A DNA stretch of 64,000 nt from a virus. Taxonomy: Duplodnaviria > Caudoviricetes. The stretch covers positions 1 to 64,000 of the IMG/VR virus record IMGVR_UViG_3300013947_000019, one strand, 5' to 3'. Numbering within the stretch: position 1 is the stretch's first letter; each line of letters opens with the position of its first letter. Shown here piece after piece: positions 3,607 to 54,534 of the stretch. The translations under genes were made by a program, and so were the position numbers. The notes below the pieces were generated by a model. That model saw nothing but the letters and a program-made list of their open reading frames with translations. It ran no database searches and was not told the DNA's origin.

Positions 3607-3620
3607 ATTATAGGTTTGTT
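3607..3620 (-). promoter_or_regulatory. Late-like promoter AACA-AACC-TATAAT
   Basis: Recurrent AACA-N4-TAT motif upstream of virion/RNAP genes. Confidence 0.6.
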
Positions 3621-43057: not shown

Positions 43058-43516
43058 TTGATTCCTATGGCTAAGAAAAATAAAGAGATCGATATGGCAC
43101 AAGAACTTCTTGCTAAGAAGAAGAGACAACTACGTAATGAACGTATCAGAGAAAGTCTTGCTGCTAATTTAATGAGTACAACTAAACAGCTTGTTTGGTT
43201 ATTTTCTATTAATGGTATTTTATGGATCTGGTGCTCTTATGTACTAGCATTTATGGATAAAGTACAGATTGCTGAGAGCCTCTCTAGTAATGTATGTACA
43301 GTTGTTCTTGGTCAGCTTGGTATGTACCTAATCACCAAGACTGTGGAGAACGTCTTCCGTTATAATAATTTCGGAGGTACATCTTTATATACTGCCGACA
43401 ATCAAAATGTCGAAGTAAATAATACTTTTACAGAAAGTGAGGAAATGAATAATGGAACAGAAGCAGACCAATACTGTAGTGGAGGAGACCAAGTCGACCC
43501 AGGCTCCTTGGTATAA
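43058..43516 (+). CDS. Membrane protein, possibly lysis-related
   Basis: Late-like promoter at 43022-43035; GAAAGGAGG RBS; two hydrophobic segments. Confidence 0.6.
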   Translation: MIPMAKKNKEIDMAQELLAKKKRQLRNERIRESLAANLMSTTKQLVWLFSINGILWIWCSYVLAFMDKVQIAESLSSNVCTVVLGQLGMYLITKTVENVFRYNNFGGTSLYTADNQNVEVNNTFTESEEMNNGTEADQYCSGGDQVDPGSLV

Positions 43517-43814
43517 GAAGTTTACCTCCCGTAAGTTCATCATGGCCCTGATCGGTGTAATTACTGGTATCTGTGGTATGATCGGTTTCAGTGACAATAC
43601 GACTGCAGTGATCGCTTTCATTGCTATCGAGATTTTATCCCTGGCCGGTTATATCATTGCTGAGGGTGTCGTTGATGCTAAGGCTGTGAAGACAGGTGCT
43701 ACGATTCTGCAGGAGATTGCAGACATCATTGCTGCACTGATGGATCATAAGGAACCAACTGTTGATCCTGATGGTGGTACTCATGATGATACGATGAAAG
43801 ATTTGGATGAATAA
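43452..43814 (+). CDS. Putative holin
   Basis: KKFTSRKFIMALIG...AGYIIAEG.VDA, a pattern seen in Firmicute phage holins; two TM segments. Confidence 0.65.
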   Translation: MEQKQTNTVVEETKSTQAPWYKKFTSRKFIMALIGVITGICGMIGFSDNTTAVIAFIAIEILSLAGYIIAEGVVDAKAVKTGATILQEIADIIAALMDHKEPTVDPDGGTHDDTMKDLDE

Positions 43815-43850
43815 AGATGGGAGGGCAAATTTGCCCTCCCAATTCTTATT
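43812..43850. terminator. Bidirectional terminator between convergent genes
   Basis: GGGAGGGCA-aatt-TGCCCTCCC. Confidence 0.75.
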
Positions 43851-44526
43851 TCTCATAATGAATCTTATACCCAGATTCTGGAACCATGCACTTAGCTTCA
43901 TAATAAATTTCATTCGTGGTACAATCTTCATTATATGTAAGTGTTAGTGCTAATCCACCAGACATGATATTCTTAGCAATCTTATCAACAAGACCAAGTC
44001 GCATCAGATAATTCAGACAATATGAATATTTCTGATCAATACCAGGTAACGTTTTCATCTTAGCTGTAGCTTCATCATCCATCGTTGTTCTACCACAAAC
44101 AACAATAAAATTTAATGGATTATTGTGTGTTTCTTGCATAGTTTCACAGGAGACGGATGACGACCCGGGGAAGCACATATTTCGAGCAAATGAGAACATA
44201 TGGTCATCATGAAGTGCCCTCCTAAGGCCTTTCTGAACCTCTTTATAGTACTCTTCACTCTTTTGCATCTCAACATGAATCTTATCATGCTCTGCTTGCA
44301 GTCGATCATTTTCTGATTTCAATTCTTCCATTGTAACCAGATTCATAGCATTAATTCGACCTCTACAAATATTCAACTCTTCAGTTAATTGATCCGTGCA
44401 GGTTTGCAATTTCTTGATTTTATCGTCATAATCTGTAATGCGCGCAAAATGTTCATCTGCATCAATCACAACAAATCCATGACGCTCTAAGAATTTTCTG
44501 AACCACTTAATTAATAGTTTAATCAT
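43846..44526 (-). CDS. Coiled-coil hypothetical protein
   Basis: AAGGGAG RBS; heptad-rich N-terminal half. Confidence 0.7.
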   Translation of the reverse strand: MIKLLIKWFRKFLERHGFVVIDADEHFARITDYDDKIKKLQTCTDQLTEELNICRGRINAMNLVTMEELKSENDRLQAEHDKIHVEMQKSEEYYKEVQKGLRRALHDDHMFSFARNMCFPGSSSVSCETMQETHNNPLNFIVVCGRTTMDDEATAKMKTLPGIDQKYSYCLNYLMRLGLVDKIAKNIMSGGLALTLTYNEDCTTNEIYYEAKCMVPESGYKIHYEK

Positions 44527-44549
44527 ATAAATTACTCCCTTCTTTATTT

Positions 44550-45090
44550 TTATAGTACGATTGCTCCAGGTCGCCCTGGAGCATAACTTAACCTATGATT
44601 AACGAGTGAAGTAGCAAAAGACAGAGGTGTATGTCATGGTACCTTATGCAGTGAAAGGAGATATCTACAATGAGCGATGTAGATTTATCATTGGAGGTCG
44701 GTTAAGTTTTGGTATCGTACTGAGGCAAGCCTCACCGGAGATAGAGATGAAAAATTATTCGCACATCCATTCCAGGTATTCCCTGATTTGGATGATATAA
44801 AAATGGATATTATCTGAAGAACCATCACTTCAGTAATACCCTTGGATGAGGTGTCCAATGATGATAAATATCAGATACTTGGCAGTTATAGATATAAGAG
44901 TTATGGGAAGTGGTGGAGTCTCTTATACCTGAGGTGGAATATCTGATATCATAAGTAATCCAGTATCCTTGTTAGTACTCAACAGATGGTTAGGATCAAC
45001 CGATTACTGGGAAGGAGGACTTAATATAGGTGAAATCAAATGTACTTTGTGGAGGTATACAACATGATTCGGTGGTGAATACCAAGCCCT
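44550..45090 (-). ncRNA. Putative ~540-nt structured RNA with multiple anti-Shine-Dalgarno motifs
   Basis: 650-nt gap with no ORF of 60 aa or more. Promoter AACA-ATTT-TATG at 45089-45102. More than 10 hairpins, with minus-strand GCGA and CUUG tetraloops. About 10 CCUCC/CACCUC/CUCCUUUC motifs. Confidence 0.6.
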
Positions 45091-45174
45091 CATAAAATTG
45101 TTAGTATATGTATAAAAATAAAATAATGAGAAAGAATTTGCCCGGGAGAGTAGTATCATCTCCCGGGCTTATCT

Positions 45175-45702
45175 TTATGGTAACTTGTACAGAGTTGGAT
45201 ATCCACTTTCTCGAGTCTTCTGCAGATCAATGATACGTTGATTACTGCTACCTCTAAAACGAAGGGATATATCTTTTAACTCTTCTACAAAACGACCATC
45301 TACCAATACATCAAATGGTTTAAGCATTTCATCCATTCTTGAATTATATGCACGACAAGTCGGGTTATGAAGTTCCTCATAAGTAAATCCAGTATATAAC
45401 CAGAAATTTTTATCAGGGTGATTTGCCTTCAAAAACTTAACCAATTCACATACATACATTTGATTCTCTGGTTCCATTGGTTCACCACCAAGAATTGTTA
45501 CACCATCAATATATGATCGATCTAATGCTGCACTGAGATCATATGCAAGTTCTGTTGTTACAGGTTTACCATAATTGAAATCCCATGTACACTCATTGAA
45601 ACAATTCTTACAATGATTCCGACAACCAGATACAAAAAGAGAAATACGGACACCTAAACCATTTGCAATATCACAGTCTTTTATTGCACTATAATGTACC
45701 AT
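45175..45702 (-). CDS. nrdG: Anaerobic ribonucleotide reductase activase (radical SAM)
   Basis: DIANGLGVRISLFVSGCRNHCKNCFN, GGEP and FRGSSNQR. Confidence 0.95.
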   Translation of the reverse strand: MVHYSAIKDCDIANGLGVRISLFVSGCRNHCKNCFNECTWDFNYGKPVTTELAYDLSAALDRSYIDGVTILGGEPMEPENQMYVCELVKFLKANHPDKNFWLYTGFTYEELHNPTCRAYNSRMDEMLKPFDVLVDGRFVEELKDISLRFRGSSNQRIIDLQKTRESGYPTLYKLP

Positions 45703-45786: not shown

Positions 45787-46744
45787 CTTGAACTACCCAT
45801 AGTAACAACCATCCTATGGGAATAGACTATCCCTTGCAAGGGTCCATTATAATTGGTTCCTCATGCCGATATTTATAGTCGTTGCACCTTCTCTTCAACA
45901 TACTTTTCAATTTCTTTAGCTCGATTTTTTGGAATTTTTGGTTTTTCTTTTGGATACCTATATTCTTTGAAGAGAATTTCTTCCGCATACCATCTTGCAT
46001 AATATGCTTCTTCTTCATGTTCATAAGTTCCTAAATGTACCGATTTTCCATGAAGTTTGATTCGCGCAGCCCATTTACCATTATGATCATCAACACCACG
46101 ATAATTACTATTCATCTGGTTTTGAGATTTAGTAATGATGCGCAAATTACATCTTCTATTATCAAGCTTATTGTGATTAATATGATCAACAAATTGATCA
46201 GTACCTAGAATAACTCTATGCATAAATAAAGTAAGCTCATTAGTTCCTTTTATTTTATTCTTTGAATTCTTACTATTATTTATAGCATATCCAGAAGCAC
46301 TCTTTCTCCACTTAGTATATCGAACTTTATTGTAATCTTTGATATCAACCATTGCTTGGTCTACAAATTCACCATTTTTATCAAATAGATCGATATACAC
46401 TACATCATTTTTTATATGTGCAGTATTCGGAGTATACATAGTTCTAGGATTAGTATCAATCGGATGACCATATTTTTTAATTTGTTTATAATGCTTATTG
46501 CAAAGAGTTTGTCCAAAATATGCAATTTTACGATATAGCATTTTTCCACAAACATCACATTGAAAATGATATTCTTTCATATATACTACACCTCCTTTCT
46601 ATCTTGTTTGAGATATAGTATATATTTAAAATAAATTTATGTTAAAGAGCATGGCTCAGGATTACCCTTTTAGTTTAGTTTATAGGTTCGGGCTTCCCCT
46701 GAATTTCTATCGATTTATAATGCGGCTAAATATAGCACACCTTC
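45787..46744 (-). mobile_element. Group I intron (958 nt) in nrdD, with homing endonuclease
   Basis: P1 TGCGGT/GCCGCA with a canonical U.G pair; P7 GACTA/TAGTC (AAGGGATAGTCT); terminal G at 45787. Confidence 0.92.
45873..46580 (-). CDS. Intron-encoded HNH endonuclease with C-terminal AP2-like domain
   Basis: MHR...VDHINHNKLDNRRCNLR...QN; YRGV...KWAARI...HLGTY...EEA. Confidence 0.9.
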   Translation of the reverse strand: MKEYHFQCDVCGKMLYRKIAYFGQTLCNKHYKQIKKYGHPIDTNPRTMYTPNTAHIKNDVVYIDLFDKNGEFVDQAMVDIKDYNKVRYTKWRKSASGYAINNSKNSKNKIKGTNELTLFMHRVILGTDQFVDHINHNKLDNRRCNLRIITKSQNQMNSNYRGVDDHNGKWAARIKLHGKSVHLGTYEHEEEAYYARWYAEEILFKEYRYPKEKPKIPKNRAKEIEKYVEEKVQRL

Positions 46745-48847
46745 ACCGCATGTGCGCCTGCAGATGTTCATCGTAGATTGATTTGTATTACCACACTTAG
46801 GACATTTCCAGATTAATTTACCATTCTCATTTGTTACAATATCGATTTCTCCATCCCAGCCACATTCCTGACAATAATCAGATTTAGTGTTGAGTTCAGC
46901 ATACATGATATTATCATAAATAAATTTCATCACATTAAGTACTGCAGGAATATTACCCTTCATATCAGGAACTTCCACATAGCTAATAGCACCACCAGGA
47001 GAGAGCTTCTGAAACTCAGCTTCTTTGGCAAGTTTAGTAAAAGCATCAACTTTTTCATATACCGCGAAATGGTACGAGTTAGTTATGAAATTATGATCAG
47101 TTACACCAGGAATAATACCAAAACGCTCTTTCAAACACTTAGCAAACTTATATGTAGTAGATTCCATAGGAGTTCCATATAAAGAATAAGAGATATTCTC
47201 TGCTGCTCTCCATTCAGCACACTTATCATTCATGTGCTGCATAATCTTAAGAGCAAATTCTTTATTCTCAGGATCCATATGAGACTTACCAGTCATTGCT
47301 ACTACACATTCATGCAGACCAGCATATCCAAGAGAAATAGTAGAATAGTTATTATACAATAACTTATCAATGGTTTCACCTTTCTTCAAACGTGCAAGTG
47401 CACCATATTGCCAAAGGATAGGAGCTACATCAGAAGTTGTACCTTTAAGTCTATTATGTCTGATCTGAAGAGCTCTATGACAAAGTTCAAGTCGTTCATC
47501 AAAAATCTTCCAAAACTCGTCAAAATCTTTATGTGCAGAGAGACCAATATCAACCAGATTAATGGTCACAACTCCCTGATTAAAACGAGAATAGTATTTA
47601 TGTTCACCATTAGGACCAAGACCTTCAGTATCGGGAGTTAAGAAAGAACGACAACCCATACATGGATAAACATCACCATTCTTAAGCTCTCTCATCTTCT
47701 TTGCAGAAATATAATCAGGCACCATCCTTTTAGCAGTACATTCGGCAGCAAGTTTGGTAAGATACCAATAAGGGGAATCCTCATGAATATTGTCTTCATC
47801 AAGAACATAGATTAGCTTCGGGAAAGAAGGAGTAACCCATGCACCAACTTCATTCTTAACTCCCTGAATTCTTTGCTTTAAAGTCTCTTCAATAATCATT
47901 GCAAGATCATGTTTAGTTTGTTGATCTTCTACTTCTCCAAGATACATAAAAGATGTAACAAATGGGGTTTGTCCATTAGTTGTCAACAATGTTAAAATTT
48001 GATACTGAATCATCTGAACACCACGAGTAACTTCCTCATGAAGTCTAGATTCAGTAATCTTATCAATCAGGTAAGTATCATTTGCACTATGCGTATCTTT
48101 CAGCTCCTCGATAACCTTCTTGCGAATCTTCTGACGAGAAATATCAACAAAAGGTGCAAGATGACTCAAAGAGAAGGTTTGGCCGCCATATTGATTAGAA
48201 GCAACCTGTGCAATGATTTGAGTGGTAATATTACATGCAGTAGAGAAAGAATGTGGCTTCTCGATCATAGTACCAGAAATAACGGTACCATTCTGAAGCA
48301 TATCTTCTAGATCAATCAAATCACAATTATGCATTCTCTGTGCTACATAATCTTGATCATGCAACCAAATGATTCCAGCCTCATGTGCTTCTACTAAATC
48401 ATGCGGATATAAATATCGTTTACATATATCTCTAGAAATCTCACCAGCCATATAATCACGCTGGGTAGAATTGATTACAGGGTTCTTATTAGAATTCTCC
48501 TGCTTAGCCTCTTCGTTTGTCTGATCAATGATAGAAAGGATCTTATCATCAGTTGTATTCTTCTGACGGATCTTGCTTCTCTCATAACGATAGGTTATAT
48601 AATTCTTAGCAATCTGGTAGAAACCAAGTTTCATGATTGCTAATTCAACCATATCTTGAATATCTTCTACACCAACAGCATGTCCAAGTTTTTCACATTT
48701 AGCTTGAACTGTAGAAGCAATATCTTTGATATAATCATCAGTCATTCTTGCTGTCTGCGGGACAGTTGCATTTGCTTTACCGATCGCAATTTCAATTTTA
48801 GAAATATCAAAGACTGCTTCAGAGCCATTCCTTTTTATGACATTCAT
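46745..48847 (-). CDS. nrdD: Anaerobic (class III) ribonucleotide reductase, exon 1
   Basis: ATP cone (VIKRNG), HNCDL, QYGGQT, MGCRS, YGTPMES, TNSYH, CQEC...CPKC; ends RRTCG. Predicted spliced product is 723 aa. Confidence 0.95.
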
Positions 48848-54187: not shown

Positions 54188-54264
54188 GTGATGTTTCCAC
54201 CACCTTTCTATAAGAGAATTATCACAATGTCTTACTTTATACTGTTGTTCCGGGGTGTATCGAT

Positions 54265-54485
54265 TAAAAGATGAGAATCAGGCCTGGGACCAACCCAGAC
54301 CTGATCTCAAAGAAAGGAGTAACCAATGTAAACCATGCCTAACCCGCCAGCAAGTTTACCGCATCTTTGATGTAGTCTACCCCGCAGAAGACTACATCCC
54401 TACTAAAAAAGGAGGTGTAGGAAAAATGAACAAAAGAGGAGCAAGAGTATCGAGCAGGTATCGTTTTAAGCGTAGAACGTACCTA
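54265..54485 (-). ncRNA. Putative ~220-nt sRNA with three anti-SD motifs, its own promoter and terminator
   Basis: AACA-ATAT-TATAGG at 54482-54495; five hairpins; terminal hairpin with G.U pair and U tract on the minus strand. Confidence 0.6.
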
Positions 54486-54534
54486 TAATATTGTTATATA
54501 ATTATTTCTATAATAGTTAAAAGGAGGATCTATT

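Follow-up and report, generated by a model that had tools for sequence, protein, structure and literature searches.

The subject of this analysis is a gap of 648 nucleotides (nt) between genes at positions 44527-45174 of a 64-kb window, which represents the first 64 kb of a jumbo-phage record of 259,863 bp in IMG/VR (IMGVR_UViG_3300013947_000019). The gap is flanked by minus-strand genes, and we are highly confident that it encodes a genuine minus-strand structured RNA of about 540 nt, which stands behind a late-type promoter and constitutes a new family, because its helices are maintained by compensatory changes and no Rfam family matches it. A stretch of 22 nt within this RNA is fully complementary, in antisense, to the translation start region of a gene for a 210-aa protein, located 23 kb away and outside the window. 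Judging from these sequence comparisons, we put the chances at about even that base pairing with start regions is the mode of action of the RNA and that the 210-aa gene is its true target in this clade of phages.

Homologous gaps were gathered by means of the flanking 226-aa protein and NrdG. The main clade comprises nine distinct gap sequences with 82-99% identity, namely those of the window, L020, L003 (=L033), L021, L034, L035, L037, L039, and L040, and three lineages were found beyond it (L011; L009/L010/L022; L047/L048). Homologous gaps are thereby present in at least four gut jumbo-phage lineages, derived from human and animal gut metagenomes, and they are placed in the order nrdG, RNA, and 226-aa gene, with the exception of L009, where a DUF3307 gene intervenes between the RNA and the 227-aa gene. 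Between the lineages the sequence is mostly unalignable outside a few boxes, while the architecture persists: a variable 5' domain made of hairpins whose loops are rich in C and U, a conserved junction that holds the UAUAUCAUC box as well as the hairpins H1 and H3, and a 3' domain that is shut by two long-range helices. All elements of the RNA given below lie on the minus strand of the window.

One of the two long-range helices closes the subdomain that carries words complementary to Shine-Dalgarno (SD) sequences, and joins AACUUAACC (44700-44708) to GGUUAAGUU (44585-44593). It is paired at 9/9 positions in four lineages, each of which has its own sequence: AACUUAACC/GGUUAAGUU, UAUUGUAUC/GAUACAAUA, AAUUUAUUC/GAAUAAAUU, and AUUUAUCUA/UAGAUAAAU. 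Double changes occur at 7/9 pairs, compared with 0/500 in the shuffle control and 0-1 in slid controls, and the duplex energies amount to -11.6 to -13.2 kcal/mol for strands of the same lineage versus -0.9 to -9.3 kcal/mol for strands combined across lineages. The second helix, which locks the 3' domain, is formed by AGUACGAU (44714-44721) and AUCGUACU (44554-44561), the latter directly following the terminal hairpin and separated by 12 nt from the SD of the gene that comes next. This locking helix is paired 8/8 in 12/12 sequences and shows two independent compensations, U-A to G-C in L009/L022 and A-U to G-C in L047; in L022 it furthermore holds a G.U pair that would be C.A if read on the other strand. 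The perfectly conserved box at 44554-44561 had also been considered as a promoter, an idea that was rejected, as its conservation is accounted for by its being a strand of this covarying helix. Over the whole 3' domain, double changes were counted at 10 pairs against 3.3±1.3 in shuffles (0/500) and 0-1 with slid partners, in an alignment that was model-guided and fitted to the structure and therefore favours it. Four perfect helices of differing sequence at an equal place are nonetheless hard to obtain otherwise.

The conserved core lies at 44764-44801, where a single-stranded U(U/C)UAUAUCAUC leads into H1 (CAUCC..GGAUG plus an inner stem). The UAUAUCAUC box is invariant in the main, L011, and L009 lineages, and the inner stem of H1 covaries (CAGG/CCUG, CUAG/CUAG, GCGAAG/CUUUGC, and UGAG/CUCA), with four pairs changed on both sides. 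Compensatory changes thus maintain three helices, namely the closing helix, the locking helix, and the inner stem of H1. Hairpin H3 (GAGG-CUUG-CCUC, 44722-44733) reads CGGG-UUAU-CCCG in L011 and GAGG-ACAU-CCUC in L003, and is missing from L009 and L022. The 5' hairpin domain (45015-45091) is built on the helix GAGGGCUUGGUAU/AUAUUAAGUCCUC, for which alifold analysis of the nine main-clade variants revealed one-sided as well as two-sided changes. It carries the C-rich loops UUCACCACC (45071-45079) and UAUACCUCCACAAAG (45045-45059), with a predicted probability of being unpaired, P(unpaired), of 0.98, and a CCUCCA-type loop is found at the equivalent place in L011. A variable hairpin, UAUAAGAG-(ACUCCACCACUUCCCAUAA)-CUCUUAUA (44893-44927), exposes an anti-SD-like loop (P(unpaired) 1.00) and is swapped for unrelated sequence in L021. 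Further hairpins are UUGGA-CACCUCA-UCCAA (44842-44858), AUCUACA-UCGCUCAU-UGUAGAU (44663-44684), whose loop is complementary to AUG and whose 3' arm belongs to the 22-nt element, and GACA-UACACCUC-UGUC (44620-44635). The terminal hairpin UGCUCCAGG-GCGA-CCUGGAGCA (44562-44583) is without a U-tract and was not called by the terminator scan; its stem is invariant across all lineages, with loops that read GCGA, GAAA, UUAAU, or UCGC. All minus-strand hairpins listed in the original prediction were found in the sequence.

Searches with Rfam 15 at gathering thresholds gave no match over the whole window, and relaxing the cutoff to E-values up to 10 for 44400-45300 produced chance-level matches only (best E 0.61; 17.9 bits versus a threshold of 39). 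The RNA regions of L003, L009, L011, and L047 likewise had no Rfam match at E up to 0.1. GOLLD, ROOL, OLE, HEARO, group I/II introns, and riboswitches were rejected as identities, none of them scoring in Rfam at the gathering threshold, and no tRNA or tmRNA identity was found. In the phage records of INPHARED, neither the RNA nor the surrounding 10 kb had a DNA match. Pattern scans of IMG/VR with a conserved 20-mer, or with the terminal hairpin plus box, retrieved the relative G001 alone, and the RNA model R1 found no member beside nrdG in 79 other IMG/VR phages that carry this gene. As far as these sequence searches reach, the RNA family appears to be restricted to one phage clade.

Two promoter classes were recognized in the phage genome. 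Class 2, with the motif AACA-N4-TAT[AG], has 44 sites genome-wide. Intergenic DNA, which makes up 8.8% of the genome, holds 30/44 of them, for the most part 20-90 nt ahead of a gene on the same strand. In the form AACA-N4-TATA(AT) it precedes the genes for the major head protein and a virion protein as well as a 3114-aa gene, with AACA-N4-TATAAT examples upstream of head/virion genes at window positions 3609, 18840, 36921, and 43022. Class 1, TTTGAGATATATA[CT]TATATAAGTGA, has about 35 good copies in the genome and precedes the genes for DNA ligase, an RNA polymerase beta-like protein, a kinase-like protein, and an HNH protein; examples upstream of replication/transcription genes are located at 46610, 60756, and 62934 of the window. 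Judged by this gene content, class 2 is taken to be late and class 1 early or middle. The promoter of the RNA, AACAATTTTATG (45091-45102), belongs to the late class and is accompanied by a conserved TTTTTATACATATACT upstream, and CTAACA[AG]TTTTAT is kept in every homologous gap. The AACA-N4-TAT promoter that had been claimed for the RNA is hence a member of a genuine class, whose sites are enriched between genes and ahead of genes read from the same strand. The exact motif CTAACAATTTTAT was discarded as a repeated promoter, as it does not recur in the genome and only the looser AACA-N4-TAT class does. Class 1 promoters, for their part, often directly follow a CGGAAG..CUUCCGAUUUU terminator.

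The RNA would probably start a few bases past its promoter, near 45085-45090, and we infer a structured body of about 535 nt (44554-45088). RNAfold z scores for the 648-nt gap are -8.9 on the minus strand versus -3.0 on the plus strand, the 529-nt body has a z of -4.4 on the minus strand, and G.U pairs occur on the minus strand only; together with the promoter class, these results bear out the minus-strand orientation proposed earlier. A perfect bidirectional terminator, UGGGAGGGCAAAUUUGCCCUCCCA (43818-43841), stands between the convergent genes 43452-43814 (plus) and 43846-44526 (minus), where it ends the minus-strand unit and blocks entry to the RNA region on the plus strand, and no plus-strand promoter of class 1 or class 2 was found in the RNA region. 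On the upstream side, a hairpin GCCCGGGAGA..UCUCCCGGGC that follows nrdG (45140-45168, minus strand), with an equivalent in the relatives, is likely the end of the nrdD-HNH-nrdG unit. No terminator was called between the RNA and the 226-aa gene, before that at 43818-43841. Since none separates the RNA from this conserved gene, the RNA is most likely the leader of the 226-aa gene transcript, whether or not it is later processed. Elsewhere in the genome, late-class promoters at 166064 (minus), 137240 (plus), and 240819 (minus) have their next same-strand gene 550-1140 nt away, according to crude gene calls, and may drive long leaders or non-coding RNAs as well.

The original prediction had set out from words on the plus strand that resemble ribosome-binding sites, in a gap said to have no open reading frame (ORF) of at least 60 aa. 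The longest ORF has 57 aa, and the SD/ATG coordinates are all right (GAGGTG 44624/ATG 44636, GAAAGGAG 44653/ATG 44670, GGAG 44737/ATG 44747, GAGGTG 44848/ATG 44858, AGGTGA 45028/ATG 45040, and GGAGGT 45051/ATG 45064). The plus strand of 44560-45092 contains 11 merged GGAG/GAGG sites, compared with 4.9±1.8 in 2000 dinucleotide-preserving shuffles (P ~0.0005) and a genome mean of 2.15 per window of equal size, by which it ties the genome maximum, and it holds 6 SD-N3-11-ATG units where 1.7 are expected. A density no higher than in shuffled sequence, which would have spoken against the idea, is therefore not what was observed. On the RNA strand, the corresponding CUCC/CCUC excess is about twofold in five homologues from three lineages (9-11 sites versus 5.1-5.8 expected) and present in all lineages tested. 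In the predicted ensembles these anti-SD sites favour the unpaired state, with P(unpaired) of 0.49-0.74 versus 0.41-0.43 for other bases. Although the composition of the RNA is skewed towards C and away from G (C 0.24, G 0.16), the excess outlasts dinucleotide-preserving shuffles and is therefore more than composition. The positions of the anti-SD modules are not conserved between relatives. Of the original prediction, the long structured minus-strand RNA with an excess of exposed anti-SD words is supported, whereas an array of many guides is not.

A single anti-SD word, UCUCCUUUCA (44652-44661), is conserved in every lineage, being invariant in the main, L011, L009, L022, and L047 sequences. 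It is single-stranded, with P(unpaired) of 0.88 in the window RNA, and follows a hairpin within the closed 3' subdomain. This word resembles the CCUCCUUUCU tail of Bacillota 16S rRNA, and the recurring CACCUC/ACCUCC words share this likeness to the 16S 3' end (..CACCUCCUUUCU-3'). As would be the case for the 16S anti-SD tail, the words would pair with GAAAGGAG(G), the preferred SD of the phage. Unlike the tail, they are internal words of an unrelated RNA, and UCUCCUUUCA reads UCUCC instead of CCUCC, which suits GGAGA-type SDs best.

This word forms part of the 22-nt element GCUCAUUGUAGAUAUCUCCUUU (44654-44675). The plus strand of the element is identical to genome positions 67493-67514 (L002:1501-1522), the only long match of the gap in the 260-kb genome (BLAST E ~2e-5), and the minus-strand RNA is therefore perfectly antisense there. 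The 22/22 match takes in the SD of the 210-aa gene (67509-68141; L002:1517-2149) together with its spacer, its AUG, and its second codon. This gene adjoins an RNA polymerase beta-like gene, and its promoter, at 67418, is of class 1. The duplex with this target reaches -38 kcal/mol, compared with -21.6±3.8 kcal/mol over 226 start regions, making it the top outlier (z -4.3), and the net interaction after opening both partners is about -23 kcal/mol. The anti-AUG loop and the single-stranded anti-SD tail, which flank the 7-bp arm, are both predicted to lie open and could thus serve as seeds. In G001, a U in the RNA site is changed to A and the paired A in the target to U, so that 22/22 pairing is kept, and the target is again the sole second match of that RNA in its genome. 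These two genomes are the same-genome RNA/target pairs that could be assembled (n=2).

The loops of the RNA are C-rich, enriched, and mostly unpaired, and yet the start regions of the phage gave one partner only. When the other modules were compared with them by exact, mismatch-tolerant, and G.U-tolerant matching and by duplex energies, nothing rose above background. Neither did the strength of the SDs towards the anti-SD words differ between class-1 (early/middle) and class-2 (late) genes. Of the array of antisense guides envisaged by the original prediction, one full guide spanning SD and AUG has survived (44654-44675, 22/22), whereas the others have no phage target beyond the generic SD and no second partner emerged. 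In GTDB genomes the 22-nt element matched one unrelated contig of a metagenome-assembled genome (MAG), which was judged a chance or convergent start region. This contig, DUOU01000060.1, comes from a digester Bacteroidetes MAG and shares 25 nt, AAAGGAGATATCTACAATGAGCAGA (L044:2973-2997, minus strand), with the start of the 210-aa gene; there AAAGGAGATATCTACAATGAGCAGA starts an unrelated gene, a coincidence that is odd, though probably due to chance among strong starts.

We propose that the late class-2 promoter would drive the minus-strand RNA, probably as a leader of the 226-aa gene, and that the 3' domain closed by its two helices would present UCUCCUUUCA beside a hairpin. The RNA would act through pairing by its exposed anti-SD sequences. 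In particular, UCUCCUUUCA and the adjacent hairpin loop may pair with the start region of the target over 22 nt, from the SD through the spacer to the AUG and the second codon, so that a late RNA would block ribosome binding on an early/middle-class mRNA, which might also become open to attack by a double-strand RNase. The putative outcome would be the shut-off of the 210-aa gene late in infection. The product of this gene has no Pfam or PHROG match. It is rich in Lys and Glu and, apart from a short helical core that is conserved, largely disordered (Atlas model). In gut metagenomes it is highly variable, falling into more than 110 sequence clusters, and some lineages have a shortened form of about 145 aa.

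Several observations weigh against this proposal. The coordinated change in G001 amounts to a single event, and the position concerned, which is the loop-closing base in the RNA and position -2 of the spacer in the target, can vary freely on either side; the probability of such a change by chance is therefore about 0.1, nearer 0.1 than 0.01. Three variants of the RNA site occur in the main clade (CAU-U, CAU-A, and CAU-AA before GUAGAU), and the target start reads CAAUG in the genome of the window, CUAUG in G001 and L043, and AUAUUCACUAUG in L045. The RNA-site variant CAUAAGUAGAU of L021, L034, and L037, for which the pairing target would be CUACUUAUG, was seen without its partner, and so was the target variant AUAUUCACUAUG of L045 without its RNA. 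In the L009 lineage, where the element reads GAAAGGAGACCUUCACAAUGAAGG, the target orthologue (L029:101-550) was found by position along a 249-kb record; its start, AAAAGGAGAUUAAUAUUAUGAGC, is complementary to the element in the SD alone and ranks 33/37. The starts of other distant orthologues, which may belong to other lineages than the RNAs compared, match neither the L009 nor the L011 element. Scanning IMG/VR for the target starts predicted from these two elements returned nothing in the case of L009 and, in that of L011, a single unrelated gene start. The match is missing from the most divergent lineage that was checked, and L047 has no anti-AUG part. With the L009 orthologue unmatched and the anti-AUG part absent from L047, the sequences place the 22-nt guide as a property of the clade of the window and not of the whole family. 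Moreover, conservation around the site extends far past the 22 nt, and therefore other constraints must also act. Finally, the RNA abuts the SD of the next gene, with which a role in cis fits equally well.

A purely cis-acting role is in fact the main rival. The RNA would then serve as a 5' untranslated region that controls the translation or stability of the 226-aa gene (43846-44526, minus strand; SD GAAGGGAG at 44535-44542), for instance by sequestering the SD until refolding, and the 22-nt match would be incidental or secondary. This is possible, although we lean towards doubting it. The gene is in synteny with the RNA in all lineages, the RNA lying constantly upstream of it, or of DUF3307 and that gene in L009, with no terminator in between and with the locking helix stopping 12 nt before the SD. 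In L009, L022, and L047, UCUCCUUUCA(A) is perfectly complementary over 10-11 nt to the SD of the adjacent gene, UUGAAAGGAGAG, a form that is rare in the genome of the window (3 of ~260 genes), and in the main clade the ensemble folds pair the SD of the 226-aa gene with some anti-SD word (P(unpaired) 0.01-0.08). However, the SD is predicted to pair with different words in the window and in its close relative L003, and only weakly in other lineages, which leaves no conserved sequestering helix, and a conserved alternative pairing that would sequester this SD or form a terminator was not found across the lineages. In the main clade and L011 the SD fits UCUCCUUUCA merely as a generic SD (7-8 bp), in L009 another gene intervenes, and a single anti-SD word would suffice for a cis leader, whereas about ten are kept.

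It is also conceivable, if doubtful, that the RNA is a late master riboregulator resembling RNAIII of Staphylococcus aureus. On an ornate scaffold of 540 nt, its many exposed loops, similar to the 16S tail, would damp the translation of SD-led mRNAs of early phage genes and of the host, perhaps in company with a second, small anti-SD RNA at 54.3 kb, and one module would be re-tuned in each lineage, directed at a distant early/middle-class gene here and at the adjacent gene in other lineages. We consider it unlikely that an abundant late RNA simply binds many host and phage SDs, in an RNAIII-like or sponge-like manner, with the 22-nt element as its site of highest affinity. The twofold anti-SD excess is found in every lineage despite shifting positions, its sites are mostly unpaired, the C-rich loop at the equivalent 5' hairpin is retained in the main clade and L011, and the second late-promoter small RNA (54250-54495) has a conserved CUCCUUUCUUU word. 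Against this stand the single target that stands out among the phage start regions, the equal strength of early/middle and late SDs, by which a general effect would not discriminate, and the loss or swapping of modules between close relatives. Such a broad multi-target role is thus possible, unsupported, and improbable in our estimate.

The second candidate, a small RNA of about 230 nt on the minus strand (window 54250-54495), has a late-like promoter AACAATATTATAGG and a loop ACACCUCCUUUUUU, and its conserved CUCCUUUCUUU word sits right before a strong terminator hairpin (fold z -3.4). The promoter, word, and terminator are also kept in the L009 lineage (L027:4291-4653), and comparison of this RNA with the phage start regions revealed no outlier target.

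We consider it very unlikely that the RNA binds proteins or serves an architectural purpose, with the C/U-rich loops as protein sites, e.g., for the 226-aa protein, and the SD complementarity as a by-product of composition. In favour of this reading, the RNA is large and ornate, its core being conserved and its periphery variable, it has constant synteny with one uncharacterized protein, and its composition is skewed (C 0.24, G 0.16). Nevertheless, the anti-SD excess survives the dinucleotide-preserving shuffles, and the 22-nt perfect antisense to a start region would be left unexplained. The 226-aa protein has no Pfam or PHROG match, and its structure model, an N-terminal coiled coil followed by a low-confidence C-terminal part, is too poor (mean predicted local distance difference test score, pLDDT, 55) to reveal an RNA-binding fold. 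That the plus-strand mini-ORFs are themselves the real feature, as translated peptides or as remains of decayed gene starts, is barely credible despite the six SD-ATG units and the unit at 44653-44672, whose strong SD and ATG are kept in three lineages, given that the peptides are wholly different across lineages (MSDVDLSLEVG, MSNFYLPRR.., and MKVEVPST..), that indels among the homologues break every reading frame of the gap and leave no conserved peptide, that a plus-strand promoter is missing and the terminator at 43818-43841 stops read-through, and that the covarying helices and G.U pairs suit the minus strand.

Known systems offer partial parallels to the antisense mode proposed for the 22-nt element. 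RNAIII of S. aureus is a 514-nt regulator with multiple hairpins that is also an mRNA, and its C-rich loops pair with SD regions to block initiation. The phage RNA is similar in size, in its many hairpins and C-rich anti-SD loops, and in being a putative regulatory RNA that is part of an mRNA, here as a predicted leader. It differs from RNAIII in having no sequence or Rfam relation to it, in being phage-encoded with a late phage promoter, in the one extended target found, in internal mini-ORFs that are not conserved, and in a conserved core that consists of the junction and the locked 3' domain, not of the loops. The sar RNA of phage P22 is directed against the ribosome-binding region of a phage mRNA, whose translation it prevents by base pairing. 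Likewise, the c4 RNA of P1/P7 is a phage antisense RNA, presented in loops, that blocks the ribosome-binding site of a phage mRNA, and its specificity shifts via matched changes of RNA and target (PMC12197685). The RNA described here shares with c4 and sar loop-presented bases predicted to be complementary to a phage ribosome-binding region, and the extended complementarity over SD and start codon that characterizes them is found here beyond chance (22/22, z -4.3). The c4 and sar RNAs are, however, about 70-80 nt long, belong to temperate phages, and are encoded within or next to the operon under their control, whereas the present element is embedded in an ornate jumbo-phage RNA of about 540 nt with a putative target 23 kb off under the other temporal promoter class. 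GOLLD and ROOL, large ornate RNAs of phages and prophages, are comparable in length (several hundred nt), phage-borne and non-coding, are likewise built of multiple helices in a conserved architecture, and are not known to have a biochemical function; unlike them, the RNA has no Rfam match, is not near tRNA genes, and has a specific antisense element and an anti-SD excess. The closest systems are RNAIII in form and P1/P7 c4 and P22 sar in mode, and the RNA belongs to none of them.

In jumbo phages, post-transcriptional control has hardly been explored. Our literature search found no description of such an RNA in these phages, and a 2025 review on phage small RNAs leaves jumbo phages unmentioned. 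Here, sequence comparison strongly supports a family of large structured RNAs, and it comes with a concrete, testable candidate partner, a start region matched by 22 nt of perfect antisense, with a late promoter facing an early/middle one. If the proposed pairing holds, jumbo phages would time their own gene expression by trans-acting RNAs, and the element would be a natural, re-targetable module against start regions. Even if the antisense idea fails, a new ornate RNA family from a common clade of human and animal gut phages is a candidate for structural work.

Upstream of the gap, the minus strand of the window carries an intact nrdD (46715-48847), an HNH endonuclease gene (45873-46580), and, directly beside the gap, nrdG (45175-45702). 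In L009, nrdD is split around the HNH gene, whereas in the window the HNH gene stands between intact nrdD and nrdG. Group I intron matches below threshold were noted at the nrdD end, ahead of nrdG, in L009 (L009:2991-3351, E 8e-7) and L003 (L003:2361-2725, E 7.5e-6). Besides, a 21/21 inverted match, CATATGAGATTGTATAGTCCA, connects genome positions 208306-208326 and 135899-135919, both in gaps between convergent genes, and may represent an RNA-RNA pair or a shared element.

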